Below, piece by piece: positions 1,345 to 29,434 of a DNA stretch of 64,000 bases; the stretch's first letter is position 1, and each line of letters starts with the position of its first letter. The notes beneath the pieces are model-generated. The model saw nothing but the letters and a program-made list of their open reading frames with translations. It searched no databases and was not told the origin of the DNA. The position numbers and the translations under genes are program-made. Source of the DNA: Escherichia phage vB_EcoM_ESCO47; sequence record OM386662.1. One strand, written 5' to 3'.

Positions 1345-1547
1345 GTCAAACAAAAATTCTTACAGGTGCTAAATGCGAAAAATGCGAATGGCCTGTAGTT
1401 TTTGCTTTATGCAATGACGAAATGGCTTGTGATTTTGATTATTGGTGTTACTGTTCGAACAAAGGTTGTAGCAATCATAAAGGTGAAGGTTTTTACTCAG
1501 GATTTTACCCTTACCCAGATTTCGTTAAAGAAGGTGAACCTAAATGA
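1320..1547 (+). CDS. Cys-rich small protein (putative zinc-binding)
   Basis: CEKCEW...CNDEMAC...CYCSNKGC cysteine clusters. Confidence 0.4.
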   Translation: MLKGDMAMSQTKILTGAKCEKCEWPVVFALCNDEMACDFDYWCYCSNKGCSNHKGEGFYSGFYPYPDFVKEGEPK

Positions 1548-1726
1548 AATTAACTAAAGAAGAGAAAGCTAAACTGTTCGAACTTATCCATGACCTATTG
1601 GATGAGCAAGCAGCCACCAATGCGTACGATGAATATGCTCCTTTAACAGATGAAGAATATCAAGCATTGATGGAATCATTTGACAGGAAAGAACAAGAAC
1701 TCATTGACTACGTGAATTCACTATAA
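1544..1726 (+). CDS. Hypothetical acidic small protein
   Basis: 60-aa ORF translationally coupled (ATGA overlap) to neighbours. Confidence 0.4.
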   Translation: MKLTKEEKAKLFELIHDLLDEQAATNAYDEYAPLTDEEYQALMESFDRKEQELIDYVNSL

Positions 1727-1735
1727 GGGACTCTT

Positions 1736-2317
1736 ATGGCTAGTTTAATTTTTACATATGCCGCTATGAACGCTGGTAAGTCTGCTTCATTACTTACTGC
1801 CGCACACAACTATAAAGAACGTGGCATGGGTGTATTAGTTCTTAAACCGGCTATTGATACTCGCGATTCAAAAGGTGAAATAGTCTCTCGTATTGGTATT
1901 CGTCAGGATGCCAATATAATTACAAAAGACATGGATATCTTTGAATTCTATAAATGGGCTGCAGCACAAAAGGATATTCATTGTGTATTTGTTGATGAAG
2001 CTCAGTTCTTAACTACTGAAAAGGTGTATCAACTTAGTCGTATTGTTGACGTGTACAATGTGCCGGTAATGGCATATGGACTACGAACAGATTTTAAAGG
2101 TAATCTATTTGAAGGTTCTCAAGCATTAATGGCTATTGCCGATAAGCTTGTTGAACTTAAAGGTGTCTGTCATTGTGGTAAAAAGGCCACAATGGTAGCT
2201 AGAGTCACGGAAGACGGACTTCCAATTACAGACGGCAGTCAAATTGAAATTGGTGATACCGATAGATATGTGTCATTATGCCGGAAGCATTGGAACGATT
2301 TGACAGGATTGTTATAA
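1736..2317 (+). CDS. tk: Thymidine kinase
   Basis: 193 aa; P-loop AAMNAGKS, DEAQF, C-terminal CxxC...C zinc motif; same length as T4 Tk. Confidence 0.9.
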   Translation: MASLIFTYAAMNAGKSASLLTAAHNYKERGMGVLVLKPAIDTRDSKGEIVSRIGIRQDANIITKDMDIFEFYKWAAAQKDIHCVFVDEAQFLTTEKVYQLSRIVDVYNVPVMAYGLRTDFKGNLFEGSQALMAIADKLVELKGVCHCGKKATMVARVTEDGLPITDGSQIEIGDTDRYVSLCRKHWNDLTGLL

Positions 2318-2338
2318 ATACTAATATCTAACTAAGAG

Positions 2339-2557
2339 GTGTATATGCAGCATTTAAACGAAAGACAACTTCGTAATCTTACTGTTAGCCAATTAGATGA
2401 AATTCGAAGAGAGATTGGACATTCAATTTCTCATTTAAAAGAAGATATCCGTCAAACTGGTTCTAAAGCAGATTATACCCGTATGCGTAAGCTGGAAAAA
2501 TACCTCACAGATGTTAAGGCCGTCCAAAGGCGTAAAATTAATACAGGTCAAAAATAA
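2339..2557 (+). CDS. Hypothetical protein (rI.-1 position)
   Basis: 72-aa ORF with RBS AGGAGG upstream. Confidence 0.45.
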
Positions 2558-2569
2558 CAGGAGGCCGTT

Positions 2570-2869
2570 ATGGCCTTAAGAGCAATGGCCTTATTGGCAA
2601 TGCTTGGGTTGTTTGTAGCAACTACACCTTTTGTAAGTACTGCATATGTTGACCCACATTTTGATAACTATATGGAATCAGGGATTAAAAATGTTTATTC
2701 TCTATTTGAAATCCATAATGTAGAGAATTCTGAAAAATTTTATTCTTATATGGCTAAAAGTTTTAAAGCTAATCCCTGTCAAGATGCATTTGAATGCCAT
2801 GAACAAGGAACCAGAACCGCTAGACAGTTCGCAGAGTTTATGAATATAAAATTAAACGACTCATTCTGA
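2570..2869 (+). CDS. rI: Lysis-inhibition regulator rI
   Basis: 99 aa; N-terminal signal-anchor MALRAMALLAMLGL and VDPHFDNYMESGI region match my recollection of T4 RI; adjacent to tk as in T4. Confidence 0.65.
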   Translation: MALRAMALLAMLGLFVATTPFVSTAYVDPHFDNYMESGIKNVYSLFEIHNVENSEKFYSYMAKSFKANPCQDAFECHEQGTRTARQFAEFMNIKLNDSF

Positions 2870-2892
2870 TGCATTTTAAATGCGACATAATC

Positions 2893-2920
2893 AAAGTCCC
2901 TTCCGAAAGGTTGGGACTTT
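2893..2920 (+). terminator. Rho-independent terminator
   Basis: AAAGTCCC...GGGACTTT stem followed by T-run. Confidence 0.55.
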
Positions 2921-2933
2921 TTGGCATTTAGCA

Positions 2934-2963
2934 GTTTACATCTCGGTAAAATGGTGTTATAGT
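2934..2963 (+). promoter_or_regulatory. T4-type early promoter (-35 GTTTAC, -10 TATAGT, conserved downstream box)
   Basis: GTTTACA, 18-nt spacer, TATAGT, then AGTCCTATCAA box and AGGAG RBS. Confidence 0.55.
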
Positions 2964-2991
2964 AGTCCTATCAAATAAAGAGGAGAACAAA

Positions 2992-3099
2992 ATGAAACTT
3001 TTGCTTATTGTATATGTTGTGATACAATACAACTATCCGATGTTCACATTCAATATGGTGAACAATATAATAAATCTTATTGAGAAGAGCATACAATGA
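2992..3099 (+). CDS. Small hydrophobic ORF (35 aa)
   Basis: ATG 7 nt after AGGAG; below ORF-track cutoff; ATGA overlap with next gene. Confidence 0.3.
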   Translation: MKLLLIVYVVIQYNYPMFTFNMVNNIINLIEKSIQ

Positions 3100-3305
3100 G
3101 TTTATACGATCCTAGCGGTGATTCTGAAAATGGCGTTATCCTTTTAAAAGGTGAACGAACCAAAGAAATGGATATTGATGATGTTGAAGTGTCAAGTTGG
3201 ACCTTGATACCTGGTGGGATTTGTCTTGAACAGGACGATAACTTCATTTGCCTAGACGCTGGCCAAGTAGAAGCTCTCTATAGTATTTTAAAACATAACC
3301 GTTAA
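3096..3305 (+). CDS. Hypothetical protein
   Basis: 69-aa ORF. Confidence 0.4.
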   Translation: MSLYDPSGDSENGVILLKGERTKEMDIDDVEVSSWTLIPGGICLEQDDNFICLDAGQVEALYSILKHNR

Positions 3306-11200: not shown

Positions 11201-11614
11201 ATGAATATTTCTGAAACTCGCGGTAAATGGTTCAAGATTGTTAAAGAAGATGAAGAACTACAAGCCAAGTTTCCTGAATTAAAGAAAGGAACAATCATCA
11301 AGGTAATTGGTATTTCAACAACGGCTGACCTGTCTGGTGGCATCGTTGAAGTGATGTTGTCTACTGGCGAGAAACTTTGCATCAACGACCGTGATATTGG
11401 TTTTTGGTGTTTCTGGGAATCTGATTCAATAGATGAACTCGAAGAAATTGACCAAGTAGTTCGTGACAGTGAACTACTTGGTGAATTCGAAGGGGAACGT
11501 ATTTCTTATGCTTTAGCTAAATTAGCCGCACAAGAAAATAATGACGGCTATGAAGGTAATCTGATGCAAGCCGCAGCGGAATACATTGAATATTTAGAAA
11601 GACGTTTAAGTTAA
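11201..11614 (+). CDS. Hypothetical acidic protein
   Basis: ORF-track 11183 start is TTG; ATG at 11201 has GGAG at good spacing. Confidence 0.45.
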   Translation: MNISETRGKWFKIVKEDEELQAKFPELKKGTIIKVIGISTTADLSGGIVEVMLSTGEKLCINDRDIGFWCFWESDSIDELEEIDQVVRDSELLGEFEGERISYALAKLAAQENNDGYEGNLMQAAAEYIEYLERRLS

Positions 11615-11623
11615 AGGTTTATT

Positions 11624-11803
11624 ATGAAAACTGAATTATTTTATGGCGAAAGAAAAAATGGACAAAAATCCTGGAAATTTGTTATGACTGGGGCTCCAAA
11701 CAATCCGACTATGGCTACTTCAATTATTTCAGTAACACGTCCTACTAAGAAAATGATTCGTCAATATAAACGTTTTCATCGAGACTTTTATAACGTTTAC
11801 TAA
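11624..11803 (+). CDS. Small ORF (59 aa)
   Basis: Just below ORF-track cutoff; fills gap before gene 49. Confidence 0.3.
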   Translation: MKTELFYGERKNGQKSWKFVMTGAPNNPTMATSIISVTRPTKKMIRQYKRFHRDFYNVY

Positions 11804-11805
11804 AT

Positions 11806-11837
11806 TATAAATACCCTTATCTATTTAAGGTAAGGGT
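11806..11837 (+). promoter_or_regulatory. Late-promoter-like TATAAATA box plus hairpin covering the gene 49 ribosome-binding site
   Basis: TATAAATA 11806-11813; ACCCTTA/TAAGGGT stem 11813-11837 spans the AAGG/AGGG upstream of ATG 11843. Confidence 0.45.
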
Positions 11838-11842
11838 TTATC

Positions 11843-12316
11843 ATGTTATTATCAGGCGCAAAATATAAAGAAGAAAAACAAAAATTTTATGATGCACAGA
11901 ATGGTAAGTGTCCTATTTGCCACCGTGAATTAGACCCTGATGTTCAAGGTAACCATCTTGACCACGACCACGAATTAAACGGGCCAAAAGCCGGTAGAGT
12001 TCGTGGATTACTCTGTAATCTGTGCAACGCAGCAGAAGGTCAAATGAAGCATAAGTTCAACCGTTCCGGTCTTAAAGGCTGTGATGTCGACTACCTAGAA
12101 TGGCTTGAAGCTCTTCTTGCTTATTTGAAACAAGATTATTCTGATAATAATATCCATCCTAATTTTGTTCCAGACAAAACTAAAGAGTTCTCAAGACTAT
12201 GTAAAGAGGAAATGATGGCTGAGATGCTTCAAAGAGGATTTGAATATAATGAATCTGATACTAAAACACAATTAATAGCTTCATTCAAAAAGCAGCTTAG
12301 AAAGAGTTTAAAATGA
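11843..12316 (+). CDS. 49: Endonuclease VII (Holliday-junction resolvase)
   Basis: 157 aa; CPICHREL...HLDHDHEL...CNLCN zinc/HNH-like motifs as in T4 gp49. Confidence 0.85.
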   Translation: MLLSGAKYKEEKQKFYDAQNGKCPICHRELDPDVQGNHLDHDHELNGPKAGRVRGLLCNLCNAAEGQMKHKFNRSGLKGCDVDYLEWLEALLAYLKQDYSDNNIHPNFVPDKTKEFSRLCKEEMMAEMLQRGFEYNESDTKTQLIASFKKQLRKSLK

Positions 12317-14130
12317 AAATCGAAAAAGAAATTGAAGGATTAATTCATAAAACTAATAAAGATCTTTTGAACGAGAATGCTAATAAAGATTCTCGTGTTT
12401 TTCCAACTCAACGGGACCTTATGGCTGGTATTGTGTCTAAGCACATTGCCAAAAATATGGTCCCGTCTTTTATTATGAATGCGCATGAAAGCGGAATCAT
12501 TCACATGCATGATATTGATTATTCTCCTGCTCTTCCGTTTACTAATTGCTGTTTAGTCGATTTAAAGGGGATGCTTGAGAATGGATTTAAATTAGGCAAT
12601 GCTCAAATTGAAACGCCTAAATCTATTGGCGTTGCTACTGCAATTATGGCACAAATTACTGCACAAGTTGCTTCACACCAGTATGGCGGAACTACATTTG
12701 CGAATGTTGATAAAGTTCTTTCTCCTTATGTTAAACGCACATACGCTAAACATGTTGAAGATGCAGAAAAATGGCAAATACCAGACATTCTGAATTATGC
12801 TCAATCCAAAACAGAAAAAGATGTCTATGACGCATTCCAAGCTTACGAATATGAAGTGAACACGTTATTCAGTTCAAACGGACAAACTCCTTTTGTTACT
12901 ATAACATTTGGAACAGGAACTGATTGGACTGAACGAATGATTCAGAAGGCAATTCTTAAAAACCGCATTAAAGGCCTTGGTCGTGATGGAATAACTCCTA
13001 TTTTTCCTAAACTTGTTATGTTTGTTGAAGAAGGTGTTAATCTTTATAAAGATGATCCGAACTATGATATTAAACAGCTTGCTCTAGAGTGCGCAAGCAA
13101 AAGAATGTATCCTGATATTATTTCAGCTAAGAACAATAAAGCTATCACTGGCTCATCTATTCCTGTTTCTCCAATGGGTTGCCGCAGTTTCTTGAGTGTG
13201 TGGAAAGATTCAACCTGTAATGAAATTCTTGACGGACGTAATAATCTCGGTGTTGTAACACTGAATCTTCCTCGTATCGCATTGGATTCTTATATTGGAA
13301 CACAGTTCAATGAACAGAAATTTATCGAATTATTTAATGAACGAATGGATTTATGTTTTGAAGCTTTGATGTGTAGAATTAGTTCCTTAAAAGGAGTTAA
13401 AGCGACTGTTGCTCCTATTCTTTATCAAGAAGGTGCATTCGGGGTTCGTCTTAAACCTGATGACGACATAATTGAGTTATTTAAAAACGGTAGAAGTTCA
13501 GTGTCTTTGGGATACATTGGTATTCACGAATTGAATATTCTTGTTGGACGCGATATTGGGCAAGAAATTTTAACTAAAATGAATGCTCATCTTAAACAGT
13601 GGACTGAAAGAACTGGATTTGCTTTTAGTTTATATTCTACTCCTGCTGAAAACCTTTGTTATCGCTTCTGTAAACTCGATACAGAAAAATATGGAAGTGT
13701 AAAAGATGTTACCGATAAAGGTTGGTACACTAACAGTTTCCATGTTTCAGTAGAAGAAAATATTACTCCATTTGAAAAGATTTCTCGTGAAGCGCCATAT
13801 CATTTCATTGCGACAGGTGGTCACATTTCTTATGTCGAACTTCCTGATATGAAAAATAACTTAAAAGGACTTGAGGCTGTGTGGGATTATGCTGTACAAC
13901 ATTTAGATTATTTTGGTGTTAATATGCCAGTAGATAAATGTTTTACATGTGGAAGTACCCATGAAATGACTCCTACTGAAAACGGATTTGTTTGTTCAGT
14001 TTGTGGAGAAACTGATCCTAAAAAGATGAATACCATAAGAAGAACATGTGGTTATTTGGGAAATCCGAACGAACGCGGATTTAATCTAGGTAAAAATAAA
14101 GAAATCATGCATAGGGTTAAACACCAATGA
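12313..14130 (+). CDS. nrdD: Anaerobic ribonucleoside-triphosphate reductase
   Basis: 605 aa; C-terminal glycyl-radical region and CxxC...CxxC zinc ribbon; uninterrupted. Confidence 0.9.
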   Translation: MKIEKEIEGLIHKTNKDLLNENANKDSRVFPTQRDLMAGIVSKHIAKNMVPSFIMNAHESGIIHMHDIDYSPALPFTNCCLVDLKGMLENGFKLGNAQIETPKSIGVATAIMAQITAQVASHQYGGTTFANVDKVLSPYVKRTYAKHVEDAEKWQIPDILNYAQSKTEKDVYDAFQAYEYEVNTLFSSNGQTPFVTITFGTGTDWTERMIQKAILKNRIKGLGRDGITPIFPKLVMFVEEGVNLYKDDPNYDIKQLALECASKRMYPDIISAKNNKAITGSSIPVSPMGCRSFLSVWKDSTCNEILDGRNNLGVVTLNLPRIALDSYIGTQFNEQKFIELFNERMDLCFEALMCRISSLKGVKATVAPILYQEGAFGVRLKPDDDIIELFKNGRSSVSLGYIGIHELNILVGRDIGQEILTKMNAHLKQWTERTGFAFSLYSTPAENLCYRFCKLDTEKYGSVKDVTDKGWYTNSFHVSVEENITPFEKISREAPYHFIATGGHISYVELPDMKNNLKGLEAVWDYAVQHLDYFGVNMPVDKCFTCGSTHEMTPTENGFVCSVCGETDPKKMNTIRRTCGYLGNPNERGFNLGKNKEIMHRVKHQ

Positions 14131-14597
14131 ATTATGATAGATTTTATCCTTGTGATTTTGTGAATGGCCCTGGTTGCAGGGTCGTTCTTTTCGTTACAGG
14201 TTGTTTGCATAAATGCGAAGGGTGTTATAATAAATCAACATGGAATGCTAGAAATGGTATTCCATTCACTGGTGAAACACTAGAACAATTAATTGAATGT
14301 TTGAATAATGATTATATAGAAGGATTGACTATAACCGGAGGTGACCCTCTCTATCCTGATAACAGAGATGTGATTCACTCCGTGGTTCAAACTATTAAAA
14401 ATCTTTATCCAAATAAAAGCATTTGGTTGTGGACAGGATATAAGTTTGAAGATATTAAACAACTAGAAATGCTTAAATATGTTGATGTTATTATTGATGG
14501 GAAGTATGAGAAAAATCTTCCGACCAAAAAACTGTGGCGAGGATCAGATAATCAGCGACTTTGGTCAAATACCGATGGGGTGTGGAAACATGATTAA
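14127..14597 (+). CDS. nrdG: Anaerobic RNR activating enzyme (radical SAM)
   Basis: 156 aa; CDFVNGPGCRVVLFVTGCLHKCEGC radical-SAM cysteine motif. Confidence 0.85.
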   Translation: MNYDRFYPCDFVNGPGCRVVLFVTGCLHKCEGCYNKSTWNARNGIPFTGETLEQLIECLNNDYIEGLTITGGDPLYPDNRDVIHSVVQTIKNLYPNKSIWLWTGYKFEDIKQLEMLKYVDVIIDGKYEKNLPTKKLWRGSDNQRLWSNTDGVWKHD

Positions 14598-14712
14598 ATT
14601 GAATTACATTATGGATACTATAAATGGTATGATTTTTAATTTTGGTCCAGAATTTTATTCGCAATACAGTTTAGTGCTTATCAATGCTTGGTTAATCAAT
14701 TAAGGGTAAAAT

Positions 14713-14928
14713 ATGTATAAATTTCGTAAAGGTTTAGCTGATTTTCTTACAACTGTAACGTTCTTTTTGTTTATGGCAGTTGGAGCTATTTTTCTTATTC
14801 CTTTTACTGTTGTATTTTTCATGATTAGTTTAATTTCTCCGGAAAAGGGTTTATCCTCCAGCGAATTCAATGAACGTTTGGACAAAATTACTAATAAACT
14901 GAATTCTGTTCTTGATAAAAAGGCTTAA
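14713..14928 (+). CDS. Small membrane protein
   Basis: Hydrophobic segment TVTFFLFMAVGAIFLIPFTVVFFMISLI. Confidence 0.4.
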   Translation: MYKFRKGLADFLTTVTFFLFMAVGAIFLIPFTVVFFMISLISPEKGLSSSEFNERLDKITNKLNSVLDKKA

Positions 14929-14930
14929 TT

Positions 14931-15242
14931 ATGATTAGTTTTGAGCGGTATGTGGTGGAGAGATGGAATGGGTTTGATATGTTCGGTAATGACTATTATT
15001 TCTATGAATGTAGTCTAAATCCTAGTTTCTGGGCCGGACGTGAATCTGATCTCGAAGAAATTAATGCTCGCGCCGACCTGTTAGGTGAACTCCCTACAGT
15101 ATACTTTAGCTTTGACGAGTCAGGTTTCGTTATCCAAGTTTATTTTCCTGAAGAAAATTCAGGTGATGATTCTGTTAACCCGCCTTATTGGGCTTACCAG
15201 GGGATTATTTCTCGTGGAACAAAACAAGAACCTACAGAATAA
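14931..15242 (+). CDS. Hypothetical acidic protein
   Basis: 103-aa ORF, ATTATG coupling. Confidence 0.45.
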   Translation: MISFERYVVERWNGFDMFGNDYYFYECSLNPSFWAGRESDLEEINARADLLGELPTVYFSFDESGFVIQVYFPEENSGDDSVNPPYWAYQGIISRGTKQEPTE

Positions 15243-20615: not shown

Positions 20616-20841
20616 TTATGAAATCCATCGTCATGAATTTAGTATTGATGACGGTTATATTGGTGTCGTTGAATGGACTGAGAATTACGAGGAGACAACT
20701 CCTCGTTTCTTTGGAACAATGTATGTTACCTGTGAGTACGCACCGGGTGTTGTTATGTATGCAGAACTAGATGAATATTTTGCTGATAGAGATGACATGT
20801 TAAAATATGTAGAGGACTTCATTCGAAGAGAATACATATGA
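20593..20841 (+). CDS. Hypothetical protein
   Basis: 82-aa ORF. Confidence 0.45.
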   Translation: MRIMTKTDYEIHRHEFSIDDGYIGVVEWTENYEETTPRFFGTMYVTCEYAPGVVMYAELDEYFADRDDMLKYVEDFIRREYI

Positions 20842-22526
20842 AATCATTTAAATTAAATCGTGTTCGTTATAAAAATATAATGTCTGTTGGGCAAAATTTT
20901 ATCGATATCCAATTAGATAAAGTCCAAAAGACCTTAATCACAGGTAAAAATGGTGGTGGTAAATCTACGATGTTAGAAGCCATCACTTTTGGACTTTTCG
21001 GCAAACCATTTCGTGATGTTAAGAAAGGACAAATCATTAATAGCACGAACAAGAAAGAGCTCTTAGTTGAGCTTTGGATGGAATTCGATGATAAAAAATA
21101 CTTCATCAAACGAGGTCAAAAGCCCAATATTTTCGAAATCTCCGTTGACGGTGTTCGTCTCGATGAATCTGCCAGCAGTCGTGACTTCCAAGAAGAATTT
21201 GAACGTAGCATCGGAATGTCCTATGCGTCTTTTAAACAAATCGTCGTTCTTGGTACAGCAGGGTATACCCCTTTCATGGCTCTTAGCACCCCAGCTCGTA
21301 GAAAACTTGTCGAAGACCTTTTAGAAGTCGGCACACTCGCTGAAATGGATAAAATCAATAAGTCTCAAGTTCGCGAACTTAATTCCCGGGGGCAAGTTCT
21401 CGATGCCAAGAAAGATGGTGTTATCCAACAAATTAAGATTTATAATGAGAATATCGAACGTCAAAAGAAATTATCCGGTGATAATGTAGCTCGTCTACAG
21501 AATATGTATGATGACCTGGCTAAAGAAGCTCGGTCATTAAAAGCAGAAATCGAAGAAGCTAATGAGCGACTACTTAATATCGTTCTTGACGAAGACCCTA
21601 CTGAGGCATTCAACAAGATAGGACAAGAAGCATTATTGATTAAATCTAAAATTGACTCATATAACAAAGTTATTAAGATGTATCATGACGGCGGTACATG
21701 TCCTACTTGTGCATCACAGTTGCACCAGGGTGATCCTATTGTCTCTAAGATTACCGATAAGCTTCATGAATGTAATCACTCATTCGAGCAACTTACCTGT
21801 CACAGAGATAATCTGAGTGTCCTAGTGGACGAATATAGAGCTAATGTTAAGACTAAACAGGACCTTGCATCTGATATTCGTACCAAGAAACAAGCAATGA
21901 TTGCCACTATTGATAAAGCTAAGAAAGTTAAAGCTGCAATAGAGCAAGCCTCAGCAGAATTTATCGACCATGCCGATGAGATAGCTTTGCTTCAAAAAGA
22001 ACTTGATAAAATCATTAAAACAAAATCGGATATCGTTCTTGAAAAATACCATCGTGGTATTATCACAGATATGTTAAAAGATTCTGGTATTAAAGGTGCT
22101 ATCATTAAAAAATATGTGCCTCTGTTCAACAAGCAGATTAACCATTACCTTAAAATCATGGAAGCTGATTACGTGTTTTCTATTGATGAAGAATTCAATG
22201 AATCTATAAAATCCCGTGGTCGTGAAGATTTTAGTTATGCTTCATTTAGCCAAGGTGAAAAAGCACGTATTGATATCGCTTTATTGTTCACATGGCGAGA
22301 TATTGCTGAAAAGGTTTCTGGTGTTAGAATCAATACATTAATTATGGACGAAGTCATGGATTCCGCGACTGATTCTGAAGGTATTAAAGCTATTTCAACA
22401 ATTCTTAACTCTCTAACCGATGCAAACGTGTTTATAATTAGTCACAGAGACCATGACCCACAAGCTTATGGACAACATCTTCAAATGAGCAAAGTTGGAC
22501 GATTTACTGTAATGAAAGCCTCTTAA
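20838..22526 (+). CDS. 46: Recombination ATPase gp46 (Rad50/SbcC-like)
   Basis: 562 aa; Walker A GKNGGGKST, CPTC zinc hook, C-terminal LIMDEV Walker B. Confidence 0.9.
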   Translation: MKSFKLNRVRYKNIMSVGQNFIDIQLDKVQKTLITGKNGGGKSTMLEAITFGLFGKPFRDVKKGQIINSTNKKELLVELWMEFDDKKYFIKRGQKPNIFEISVDGVRLDESASSRDFQEEFERSIGMSYASFKQIVVLGTAGYTPFMALSTPARRKLVEDLLEVGTLAEMDKINKSQVRELNSRGQVLDAKKDGVIQQIKIYNENIERQKKLSGDNVARLQNMYDDLAKEARSLKAEIEEANERLLNIVLDEDPTEAFNKIGQEALLIKSKIDSYNKVIKMYHDGGTCPTCASQLHQGDPIVSKITDKLHECNHSFEQLTCHRDNLSVLVDEYRANVKTKQDLASDIRTKKQAMIATIDKAKKVKAAIEQASAEFIDHADEIALLQKELDKIIKTKSDIVLEKYHRGIITDMLKDSGIKGAIIKKYVPLFNKQINHYLKIMEADYVFSIDEEFNESIKSRGREDFSYASFSQGEKARIDIALLFTWRDIAEKVSGVRINTLIMDEVMDSATDSEGIKAISTILNSLTDANVFIISHRDHDPQAYGQHLQMSKVGRFTVMKAS

Positions 22527-23239
22527 TGAGGCTTATGTTTACAGTTATCAAAATGCCAACGATGCATATTAGCAGGGATCCCTATTTTATCGCAATGAGG
22601 ACATTTAATTTTCTTGTCCTCTTTTTTCTTTCTGTTAGGATTTGATTTACAGAATTTTATATGCGGCTTTAACGCCGATAACTTAGTAGTTAAGCCACAA
22701 AACGGGCAAGAATCTTCTTTCCAAATTTTCGTGGCCATGGTTTTAATTATTTTATCCTTTGTTTCTTGATCAAGTTTTACTATTTTAGGCGTAGGGCCTT
22801 GTTTACAGTTATCAAAATGCCAACGTCTCATGTTTCCTTCAGTGCCAGTTAAACCGCAGTGTGGACATGTAATCTTTGGTTTATTTTTTGCAGACTCGGA
22901 CATTTTCTTACGAGTTTCAGCAGTGAATTCTTTGTTCTTTTGAACTTCTTGATTCTTACGTCGAAGCCATCCAAATAATTTGTTTTTGCTTCTATCTGCT
23001 TTAGGAGATGAGATAGTCATCATACGAGCAGCATATATTAAAGAGGCATTATCTGGATGGATTTTTACTAGCAGTTGATGTGCCAAATAATGTTCTTCTG
23101 GTGTTAAATCTACTAAGTTTAAAGCATCATCACTTCCACCTAAACATTGTGGTATAATGTAATGACGTTCTGTATAACCATCTAAACTTCTTGATTTAGC
23201 ATTGGTGATAAGCTTTTCGTATATTGAGTTATAATTCAT
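22523..23239 (-). CDS. Free-standing HNH homing endonuclease with three C-terminal zinc-finger-like repeats
   Basis: HYIIPQCLGGSDDALNLVDLTPEEHYLAHQL HNH motif; three CP(H/F)CG...H(F/I)...CK repeats; only sizeable minus-strand gene in the block. Confidence 0.65.
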   Translation of the reverse strand: MNYNSIYEKLITNAKSRSLDGYTERHYIIPQCLGGSDDALNLVDLTPEEHYLAHQLLVKIHPDNASLIYAARMMTISSPKADRSKNKLFGWLRRKNQEVQKNKEFTAETRKKMSESAKNKPKITCPHCGLTGTEGNMRRWHFDNCKQGPTPKIVKLDQETKDKIIKTMATKIWKEDSCPFCGLTTKLSALKPHIKFCKSNPNRKKKEDKKIKCPHCDKIGIPANMHRWHFDNCKHKPH

Positions 23240-23318: not shown

Positions 23319-23508
23319 GGCTGAATTTTCAACCGGACAACAACTTCTAGCTGTTCCAGAAATTAAAAAATATGTTCTGACTAATACCTTTTCAGGTGAA
23401 GAACATATTGTTACTGAAGAAATGCTCAAAAATGCTTTTAAAAATGAGTATTATAAAATAATGTCTAATCGTTCAAATGCTTTTATTGTTAGCGACTACT
23501 ATGACTAA
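23317..23508 (+). CDS. Hypothetical protein (45.2 position)
   Basis: 63-aa ORF with GGAGA RBS; its ATG overlaps the predicted -10. Confidence 0.35.
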   Translation: MAEFSTGQQLLAVPEIKKYVLTNTFSGEEHIVTEEMLKNAFKNEYYKIMSNRSNAFIVSDYYD

Positions 23509-23521
23509 AGAGAGAAATAAT

Positions 23522-23938
23522 ATGTTTACTACTGCTAAAGGTTTTACTGCTGCTGATCTGAAAGTTACTTCTATTCGTACTGACGCTAACCCACATAACC
23601 GGAATCGTGTTCGTAAAGCATGGGTCCTGCATTGTGATGATGTAAGCGCTAAGAAACTTCAGTCTCTGCCACAAGAAATTAAATTCATGCTGTATGGTTT
23701 CATTGATAATGATGTTTCCGATAAGTGGATCGAACTAATGCGCAAACATCGTGAAAATGCTATCGCAGCTGGTGGTAAAATGATTCTAGATAAAGATGGT
23801 TCAGAACGATTGGAAGACTTCTATTGTGTAGACTCAAATGACCAACTTATTGCAGCCGGTGAAATTGTAGCTGCTAAGATTCCAGAATATATTGAAACAC
23901 TGCCTGAAGCTATTAAAAAGCAAATGGTTGCTGCATAA
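23522..23938 (+). CDS. rpbA: RNA polymerase-binding protein RpbA
   Basis: Position between 46 and 45 and size as in T4; start chosen at MFTTAKGF. Confidence 0.55.
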   Translation: MFTTAKGFTAADLKVTSIRTDANPHNRNRVRKAWVLHCDDVSAKKLQSLPQEIKFMLYGFIDNDVSDKWIELMRKHRENAIAAGGKMILDKDGSERLEDFYCVDSNDQLIAAGEIVAAKIPEYIETLPEAIKKQMVAA

Positions 23939-26722: not shown

Positions 26723-29434
26723 ATGCAAGAATTTTATTTGACAGTAGAACAGATTGGTGACTCAATTTTCGAACGTTATATCGATTCTAACGGTCGTGAA
26801 CGTGTTCGTGAAGTAGAGTATAAGCCATCATTGTTTGCACATTGTCCCGAAAGTCAGGCTACAAAATATTTTGATATCTATGGTAAACCATGTACTCGTA
26901 AGTTATTCGCTAATATGCGTGACGCATCTCAGTGGATTAAACGCATGGAAGATATCGGTCTTGAAGCATTAGGTATGGACGATTTTAAATTGTCTTATAT
27001 CAGTGATACGTATCCGGTTGATATCAAATACGACCATACTAAAATTCGTGTAGCGAACTTTGACATCGAAGTAACATCTCCTGACGGGTTCCCTGAGCCG
27101 TCACAAGCAAAACATCCTATTGATGCTATCACTCATTATGACTCAATTGATGACAGGTTTTATGTATTTGACCTTTTGAATTCTCCATATGGTAATGTAG
27201 AAGAATGGTCTATCGAAATTGCGGCTAAGCTTCAAGAACAAGGCGGTGATGAAGTTCCATCCGAAATTATCGACAAAATTGTTTATATGCCGTTTGATAA
27301 TGAAAAAGAATTATTGATGGAATATCTCAATTTCTGGCAACAGAAAACTCCTGTCATTTTAACCGGATGGAACGTTGAGACATTTGATATTCCATATGTG
27401 TATAACAGAATCAAGAATATTTTTGGTGAATCCACAGCAAAACGGTTGTCACCACATCGCAAGACTCGTGTTAAAGTTATTGAAAACATGTATGGTTCAC
27501 GAGAAATCATTACATTGTTTGGTATCTCTGTTCTTGATTATATCGACCTTTACAAAAAGTTCTCTTTCACGAACCAACCGTCATATTCTCTGGACTATGT
27601 TTCAGAATTTGAATTGAATGTTGGTAAACTGAAATACGACGGTCCTATTTCTAAACTTCGCGAAAGTAATCATCAACGATATATAAGCTATAACATCATC
27701 GACGTATATCGTGTATTGCAAATTGATGCTAAACGCCAGTTCATTAACTTGAGCTTGGACATGGGTTATTATGCTAAAATTCAGATTCAATCTGTGTTCA
27801 GTCCAATTAAAACTTGGGACGCTATTATTTTTAATAGCCTTAAAGAACAAAACAAGGTGATTCCACAAGGTCGTTCGCATCCAGTTCAACCTTACCCGGG
27901 TGCTTTTGTTAAGGAACCTATTCCAAATCGATACAAATATGTGATGAGCTTCGACCTCACATCTCTGTATCCAAGCATCATTCGCCAAGTGAATATTAGC
28001 CCAGAAACAATAGCAGGAACGTTTAAAGTAGCTCCATTACATGATTATATTAACGCTGTTGCTGAACGTCCTTCTGATGTGTACAGTTGTTCTCCTAACG
28101 GCATGATGTATTATAAAGACCGTGACGGTGTTGTTCCAACTGAAATCACTAAAGTCTTTAATCAACGTAAAGAACATAAAGGTTATATGCTTGCGGCTCA
28201 ACGTAATGGTGAAATAATTAAAGAGGCCTTACATAATCCTAATCTTTCTGTTGATGAACCATTAGATGTTGATTATCGTTTTGACTTCACTGACGAGATT
28301 AAAGAAAAGATTAAAAAGTTGTCTGCTAAATCTCTTAATGAAATGTTGTTTAGAGCTCAACGTACTGAAGTTGCAGGTATGACTGCACAAATTAACCGTA
28401 AATTGCTCATCAACTCGCTTTATGGTGCACTTGGAAACGTTTGGTTCCGTTATTACGATTTGCGTAATGCAACTGCAATCACAACATTCGGTCAAATGGC
28501 TTTACAATGGATTGAACGTAAAGTTAATGAATATCTTAACGAAGTTTGTGGTACACAAGGCGAAGCTTTCGTTCTATATGGTGATACAGACTCCATTTAC
28601 GTATCTGTAGATAAAATTATTGATAAGGTTGGTGAATCTAAATTCCGCGATACTAACCATTGGGTAGACTTCTTAGATAAGTTCGCTCGTGAACGTATGG
28701 AACCTGCTATTGATAGAGGTTTCCGTGAAATGTGCGAATACATGAATAATAAGCAACATTTGATGTTCATGGACCGAGAAGCTATCGCTGGGCCTCCGCT
28801 TGGTTCTAAAGGTATTGGTGGATTCTGGACTGGTAAGAAACGTTATGCATTAAACGTGTGGGATATGGAAGGAACCAGATACGCTGAACCTAAGCTTAAA
28901 ATCATGGGTCTCGAAACACAGAAATCTTCGACTCCTAAAGCAGTACAGAAAGCTCTTAAGGAATGTATTCGTCGTATGCTTCAGGAAGGCGAAGAATCAT
29001 TACAAGAATATTTTAAAGAGTTTGAAAAAGAGTTCCGTCAGCTGGATTATATTAGCATCTCATCAGTGTCATCGGCAAATAACATTGCTAAATATGATGT
29101 CGGTGGATTCCCAGGTCCTAAATGTCCATTCCATATTCGTGGAATTCTGACATATAACCGAGCTATCAAAGGTAATATTGATGCTCCACAAGTTGTAGAA
29201 GGTGAAAAGGTATACGTTCTGCCTTTACGTGATGGAAACCCGTTCGGTGATAAATGTATCGCATGGCCATCTGGTACAGAAATCACTGATTTGATTAAAG
29301 ACGACGTGCTTCGTTGGATGGACTACACTGTTCTCCTTGAGAAGACATTTATTAACCCACTTGAAGGATTCACGTCAGCAGCGAAACTCGATTATGAGAA
29401 GAAAGCATCTCTGTTCGATATGTTCGATTTTTGA
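26723..29434 (+). CDS. 43: DNA polymerase gp43 (family B)
   Basis: 903 aa; exonuclease FDIE and polymerase YGDTDS motifs; near-identical to my recollection of RB69 gp43. Confidence 0.95.
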   Translation: MQEFYLTVEQIGDSIFERYIDSNGRERVREVEYKPSLFAHCPESQATKYFDIYGKPCTRKLFANMRDASQWIKRMEDIGLEALGMDDFKLSYISDTYPVDIKYDHTKIRVANFDIEVTSPDGFPEPSQAKHPIDAITHYDSIDDRFYVFDLLNSPYGNVEEWSIEIAAKLQEQGGDEVPSEIIDKIVYMPFDNEKELLMEYLNFWQQKTPVILTGWNVETFDIPYVYNRIKNIFGESTAKRLSPHRKTRVKVIENMYGSREIITLFGISVLDYIDLYKKFSFTNQPSYSLDYVSEFELNVGKLKYDGPISKLRESNHQRYISYNIIDVYRVLQIDAKRQFINLSLDMGYYAKIQIQSVFSPIKTWDAIIFNSLKEQNKVIPQGRSHPVQPYPGAFVKEPIPNRYKYVMSFDLTSLYPSIIRQVNISPETIAGTFKVAPLHDYINAVAERPSDVYSCSPNGMMYYKDRDGVVPTEITKVFNQRKEHKGYMLAAQRNGEIIKEALHNPNLSVDEPLDVDYRFDFTDEIKEKIKKLSAKSLNEMLFRAQRTEVAGMTAQINRKLLINSLYGALGNVWFRYYDLRNATAITTFGQMALQWIERKVNEYLNEVCGTQGEAFVLYGDTDSIYVSVDKIIDKVGESKFRDTNHWVDFLDKFARERMEPAIDRGFREMCEYMNNKQHLMFMDREAIAGPPLGSKGIGGFWTGKKRYALNVWDMEGTRYAEPKLKIMGLETQKSSTPKAVQKALKECIRRMLQEGEESLQEYFKEFEKEFRQLDYISISSVSSANNIAKYDVGGFPGPKCPFHIRGILTYNRAIKGNIDAPQVVEGEKVYVLPLRDGNPFGDKCIAWPSGTEITDLIKDDVLRWMDYTVLLEKTFINPLEGFTSAAKLDYEKKASLFDMFDF

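Follow-up and report, generated by a model that had tools for sequence, protein, structure and literature searches.

The nrdD gene of Escherichia phage vB_EcoM_ESCO47 (OM386662.1) is, as judged from its sequence, almost certainly an ordinary, functional, intron-less gene of a Mosigvirus-like T-even phage, and the position that holds a group I intron in T4 is empty. The gene was analyzed within a 64,000-nt stretch of this record, which we call the window and whose numbering is used throughout. The genes of the immediate region and the vacant site are as follows.

11843..12316, plus strand: gene 49 (endonuclease VII), Pfam Endonuclease_7 and Endonuc-dimeris
12313..14130, plus strand: nrdD, large subunit of a class III (anaerobic) ribonucleoside-triphosphate reductase, intact with 605 codons, from the ORF and Pfam
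12850..12851, plus strand: empty intron insertion site GAAT/ATGAAG, after base 1 of codon 180, from the single alignment gap, the T4 join and Rfam
14127..14597, plus strand: nrdG (radical-SAM activase), Pfam Fer4_12 (7e-49) and Radical_SAM

The first-pass annotation had described nrdD as uninterrupted, with one 605-aa open reading frame, and this description is borne out by the ORF listing, a full-length Pfam match, a MAFFT alignment and the match to a solved structure. The ORF listing of the window holds exactly one frame at 12313..14130 (plus strand), with an ATG start, 605 aa and 0 in-frame stops. Its product matches Pfam NRDD (PF13597) in a single stretch (residues 21-604, profile positions 1-562 of 562, E 7.8e-171) and also matches Gly_radical. 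Residues 1-605 align to residues 1-605 of the T4 NrdD crystal-structure chain PDB 1H78, and the product differs from T4 NrdD by 12 aa (98.0% aa identity). At the nucleotide level, the gene is 93.8% identical to the spliced T4 gene. The active-site residues Cys79 and Cys290 are unchanged relative to T4 NrdD, the C-terminal Cys4 metal (Zn) site is kept (C543, C546, C561 and C564), and the glycyl-radical motif (Gly580 in RxCGY) is present as RTCGYLG. For Cys79, Cys290 and Gly580 we use the residue numbering of the T4 literature. Base composition is even along the whole gene.

We infer the enzymatic function of the product from homology and from its near-identity to the characterized T4 enzyme. 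Because the ORF is continuous, nrdD would be read directly into a 605-aa glycyl-radical ribonucleotide reductase, and RNA splicing would not be needed. The radical-SAM protein NrdG would activate NrdD by making the glycyl radical on Gly580, and NrdD, if it functions as its homologs do, would reduce NTPs under anaerobiosis. Within the coding sequence, a short haplotype block at 12733-12792 carries non-synonymous differences (aa QIPDI in the window). This form of the block is common to the window, AV110, phiC120 and ESh15, and the alternative block is found in T4, T6, RB69, F27, JM10, pEB20 and p000v.

The first-pass annotation had stated that T4 nrdD carries a self-splicing intron with a homing endonuclease. 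The T4 record (NC_000866) agrees: it lists nrdD as a join of two exons and places I-TevII, of the GIY-YIG family, within a group IA intron, and Rfam Intron_gpI matches this intron with 105 bits. When positions 11843-14130 of the window were aligned by MAFFT to the genomic DNA of T4, F27 and JM10, the window showed one gap, directly after 12850, of 1,033 bp relative to T4 and 1,044-1,045 bp relative to F27 and JM10. No other indels relative to these three phages were seen in the aligned region. The last base of the upstream exon is T (U at -1) and that of the intron is G, which is the usual pattern at group I splice sites. After splicing in silico, the nrdD genes of T4, F27 and JM10 are each 1,818 nt long and colinear with the window gene, as are nine naturally uninterrupted genes of 1,818 nt from T6, RB69, pEB20, AV110, AV111, phiC120, ESh15, p000v and SG1. 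Alignment to both the genomic and the spliced form of T4 nrdD, which is the check that the first-pass annotation had named, therefore yielded that single gap and a colinear spliced coding sequence, with no intron-like insertion within the ORF.

F27 (vB_Eco_F27) and JM10 carry a second, Mosigvirus-type nrdD intron, whose insertion site is identical to that of the T4 intron.

1509-2552 of the F27 segment and 1509-2553 of the JM10 segment: Mosigvirus-type intron, from alignment

This element is 1,044-1,045 nt long, is 67% identical to the T4 intron, contains an I-TevII-like ORF and is found in ~44 records. Both intron types are inserted at the exact junction that the window has, and the element itself is absent from the window. 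In the F27 record, the intron-split gene is annotated as two separate nrdD CDSs and a hypothetical protein. In Escherichia phage 215Ecol030PP (PP328843.1, 45902-46162), only the first ~250 nt of the T4 intron, the ribozyme core, are matched inside nrdD, and the 3' junction of this gene is of the Mosigvirus type. This phage may carry a variant of the intron whose endonuclease ORF is another one or is missing.

Searches for intron sequence agree with the alignment gap. Across the 64-kb window, no Rfam family, RF00028 included, scores at or above its gathering threshold, and a permissive Rfam scan of 11500-15000 returned noise only. However, RF00028 does not pick up the F27/JM10 intron, which is genuine, even at E≤1. 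The lack of an Rfam match is therefore weak evidence when taken alone, and Rfam was dropped as the only intron test in favor of direct alignment and nhmmer. Because of this failure on the F27/JM10 intron, nhmmer was run with both introns. The T4 and F27 introns and their cores found nothing in the 64-kb window at E≤10, whereas in the positive control the F27 intron was recovered with the whole T4 intron at 4e-87 and with just the core at 9e-32. Similarly, tblastn with I-TevII and its JM10 homolog gave noise only against the window (E≥0.86), and a six-frame scan of the window revealed no GIY-YIG motif. The ~1 kb insertion between bases 1 and 2 of codon 180 is absent, and the window is contiguous across 12850 and 12851.

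These results also bear on whether the ORF could hide a degenerate intron, an intein or a frameshift, or whether an intron was collapsed during assembly. The blindness of RF00028 to the F27/JM10 intron gives this idea some room, but nhmmer was negative with a strongly positive control, and the gene has exactly 605 codons and lines up end to end with the crystallized T4 protein and with the nrdD genes of 12 other phages, leaving no extra sequence. We give such a hidden intron or artefact a negligible chance and regard it as effectively refuted. Nothing contradicts the uninterrupted reading of nrdD.

The intron-free gene is the usual state in T-even-type phages, and in this respect the finding is already known. 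The collection of phage genomes that we searched holds 50,697 records and includes RefSeq/GenBank duplicates and laboratory T4 variants, so that frequencies drawn from it are approximate. A 120-nt junction probe matched 1,181 of these records and was contiguous in 1,049; for a 60-nt probe, the junction was contiguous in 842 of 874 records. At least 80% of the T4 nrdD intron is held by only 69 records, 25 of them with the T4 type (at least 99% identity) and the rest (~44) with the Mosigvirus type (~66% identical). Intron carriers thus come to ~6%, a figure to be read as an order of magnitude. In both T6 and RB69, nrdD is an uninterrupted 1,818 nt. The few T-even coliphage contigs in IMG/VR include seven with the common junction and one of the T4 type. 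Scans of JGI metagenomes with the junction and the T4 exon-2 tract as probes returned zero matches and, having been run without a positive control, are uninformative.

That the T4 introns are present in some T-even phages and absent from others has served as textbook evidence of their mobility since the late 1980s. Their patchy distribution among the T-even phages has long been known (PMC2988022), and intron-encoded endonucleases are reported for 4 of ~40 sequenced T4-related genomes (T4, T6, RB3 and LZ2) and for none in RB69 (PMC2993671 Table 5). The first-pass annotation considered the lack of an intron in this gene relevant to intron mobility among T-even phages. That view stands insofar as one more naturally empty homing site has been recorded; however, absence is common among T-even-type phages, and the window gene is no notable exception. 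Alone, it carries little weight.

The sequence on either side of the vacant site was also compared. Two short segments define the junction.

12845..12850, plus strand: ACGAAT, the final six bases equivalent to exon 1 and the would-be P1 partner of the intron guide GCUCAU
12851..12884, plus strand: T4-type 3' flank of 34 nt, identical to T4 exon 2 in a base-by-base alignment

Compared with the T4 exon junction, the window is identical from +1 to +34 and differs at -2 and -5. Downstream of the site it has the T4 alleles at six positions where most intron-less phages differ, in each case synonymously (+8, +11, +14, +15, +17 and +20). The phages that differ from the window at these positions are T6, RB69 and five of the six sampled intron-less Mosigviruses, AV111 being the sampled intron-less Mosigvirus that shares the window allele, at +11 only. 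The intron-bearing phages F27 and JM10 differ from the window at +8, +11, +14, +15 and +17. The T4-type tract (at least 95% identity) is present in 26 records of the phage collection, and in 24 of these the 3' end of the T4 intron is attached to it. The lone IMG/VR contig with this tract is also intron-bearing.

Upstream of the site, the relevant feature is the potential for P1 pairing. Both intron types have GCUCAU at intron nucleotides 14-19, complementary to the exon sequence AUGAGU at -6 to -1, with a U.G pair at the splice site. All six positions pair in intron carriers and in Salmonella phage SG1, five of six pair in other intron-less phages (A at -2), and only four of six pair in the window, where a C at -5 that is private to the window is mismatched in addition to the A at -2.

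In the studies of Bell-Pedersen et al. (1990) and of Loizos et al. (1996), I-TevII is reported to cut 13-15 nt downstream of the insertion site and to tolerate sequence changes in its binding. If the cut site at +13 to +15 and the tolerant binding hold, the window junction should be cleavable. From its identity to T4 exon 2, we infer that the site would be susceptible to I-TevII, and the window nrdD would then be a potential recipient for the nrdD intron in a mixed infection. The unusual mix of an intron-less-type 5' flank and a 3' flank linked to the T4 intron could make it a natural substrate for the study of flank effects on I-TevII cleavage and homing.

The window was considered as the sole empty site with a T4-type 3' flank, and this was ruled out by phage SG1. 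The SG1 gene (1482-3299 of the SG1 segment) carries alleles associated with the intron on either side of its empty site: it has G at -2 and, as in F27 and JM10, at -8 and -11, and it is of the T4 type from +1 to +37. SG1 may be a case in which the intron was lost precisely and recently.

The window nrdD is a recombinant mosaic that changes from the intron-less Mosigvirus type to an F27/SG1/T4 type at the site, and this contrast is real. Over CDS positions 1-538, AV110 is nearest to the window with 10 differences, and T4 has 52. Over positions 539-1000, the nearest relatives are F27 (24 differences), SG1 (30) and T4 (34), and the intron-less Mosigviruses differ at 40-44. At sites that distinguish T4 from AV110, the window is T4-type at 4 of 50 upstream and at 45 of 68 downstream (Fisher p 4.5e-11). 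When a three-phage consensus replaces AV110, the counts are 2 of 41 and 17 of 31 (p 1.9e-6). Relative to the empty site, the nearest relative changes between -2 and +8. By itself, the short T4-type tract is not significant. With a strict consensus of seven phages, the run of T4-type alleles next to the site comprises 4 informative sites, and the probability of a maximal run of at least 4 is 0.12 by shuffling. The match between breakpoint and insertion site is moreover a post hoc observation, in a gene patched from several donors. The breakpoint could contribute one data point to a test, across the whole population, for clustering of breakpoints at homing sites.

One explanation for this arrangement is that the empty site is the scar of an endonuclease-initiated gene conversion at the nrdD homing site, or of a precise intron loss. 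Such a scar could arise if an intron was gained with co-conversion of its 3' flank and was then lost precisely, or if a break was repaired from a T4-type donor and the intron was not kept. Either route would explain both the T4-type tract and the breakpoint at the site. The identity to T4 exon 2 from +1 to +34, the linkage of this tract to the intron in 24 of 26 phage records and in the single IMG/VR match, and the switch in informative sites (4/50 to 45/68, and 2/41 to 17/31) at -2 to +8 are all in keeping with a scar. Furthermore, homing is known to co-convert the exons that flank the intron (PMC2988022), and boundaries of genetic exchange between phages are reported to hold nuclease genes (PMC10448857). 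However, the 5' flank shows no intron history, since the P1 pairing that is complete in carriers and in SG1 is disrupted in the window by the A at -2 and by its private C at -5. The strict T4-type run reaches only P = 0.12, and the region downstream is pieced together from several donors, a pattern typical of T-even mosaicism. We also estimate, roughly and without computation, that in a gene that has several breakpoints one of them would fall within 10 nt of any chosen site ~5-10% of the time by chance, and the test is post hoc. Because an intron-less donor with the same flank exists in the form of SG1, ordinary recombination is enough, and exchange with an SG1-like donor whose endpoint fell at the site by chance could equally account for the data. 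On balance, a scar seems rather unlikely. If true, it would provide natural evidence for a cycle of gain and loss of group I introns in T-even phages.

A further possibility is that selection has favored the T4-type 3' flank as an allele resistant to cleavage, which would protect the phage against the endonuclease of the Mosigvirus-type intron found in F27 and JM10 and circulating among its nearest relatives. The five positions at which the window differs from the exon 2 of these phages (+8, +11, +14, +15 and +17) lie in the reported cut region of I-TevII, and the ~44 related records with a Mosigvirus-type intron include close relatives such as G2285. However, the differences are all synonymous and also fit neutral mosaicism, and most intron-less relatives lack the allele and are still intron-free. 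We consider selection for resistance improbable, more so than a scar.

The wider window supports the assignment to a Mosigvirus-like phage. For positions 1-25000, the best matches in the phage collection are NHEP10, G2285, JK36, ST0 and ATK47, all of the Mosigvirus group. Since these reach only ~91% identity over ~85% coverage, the collection holds no species-level relative of the window. Elsewhere in the window there is an ORF that resembles mobC.

22523-23239, minus strand: mobC-like ORF of 238 aa, matching the N-terminal part of T4 MobC with 35% identity (tblastn 4e-16)

This ORF is antisense to the neighboring plus-strand genes and lies between gene 46 (20838-22526) and rpbA (23477-23938). 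A Pfam search of its product gave no HNH match above threshold. Of 160 related records, only 13 have the ORF, and they label it a homing endonuclease or an HNH nuclease. Some T4-related phages have group I introns in the gene that lies at 26723-29434 (plus strand) of the window (PMC2993671).

Around nrdD itself, the genes are tightly packed. The junction sequences show that the 3' end of gene 49 overlaps the start of nrdD by 4 nt and that the start of nrdG overlaps the stop of nrdD via ATGA. They contain no homing endonuclease gene between gene 49 and nrdD, and no gene of the mobC or segH type between nrdD and nrdG.

This arrangement can be compared with those of well-studied relatives. In T4, nrdD (sunY; PDB 1H78 and 1HK8) is split by a 1,033-nt group I intron that encodes I-TevII, whereas the window gene is unsplit. 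Gene 49 lies upstream of nrdD in T4 as in the window, but in T4 mobC separates nrdD from nrdG, and the window has no mobC in that slot. T6 has an endonuclease gene in the nrdD-nrdG slot, which is empty in the window. AV111 has one in the slot between gene 49 and nrdD, which is also empty in the window. In AV111, this free-standing homing endonuclease gene occupies 670-1491 of the compared segment, beside nrdD at 1482-3299. The first ~330 nt of AV111 nrdD, next to the endonuclease gene, are massively diverged from all other phages, and over CDS positions 1-538 AV111 differs from the window at 110 positions, mostly at the 5' end. This pattern suggests an endonuclease-associated replacement of sequence.

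Another phage with a vacant junction is SG1, an intron-less Tequatrovirus in which, as in the window, a 3' flank of the T4 type follows the empty site immediately. However, its nrdD is T4-like throughout (97% identical to T4), with G at -2, whereas the window gene is of the Mosigvirus type upstream of the site. In gene order, the window matches RB69. The 49-nrdD-nrdG cluster of RB69 has the arrangement of the window, with an uninterrupted nrdD of 1,818 nt, direct overlaps and no homing endonuclease genes, and the two nrdD genes are 93.4% identical at the nucleotide level. At +8 to +20, RB69 has the common intron-less allele, in contrast to the T4 allele of the window. RB69 is recorded without any homing endonuclease genes (PMC2993671 Table 5); the window, unlike RB69, has its mobC-like ORF at a distance from the cluster.
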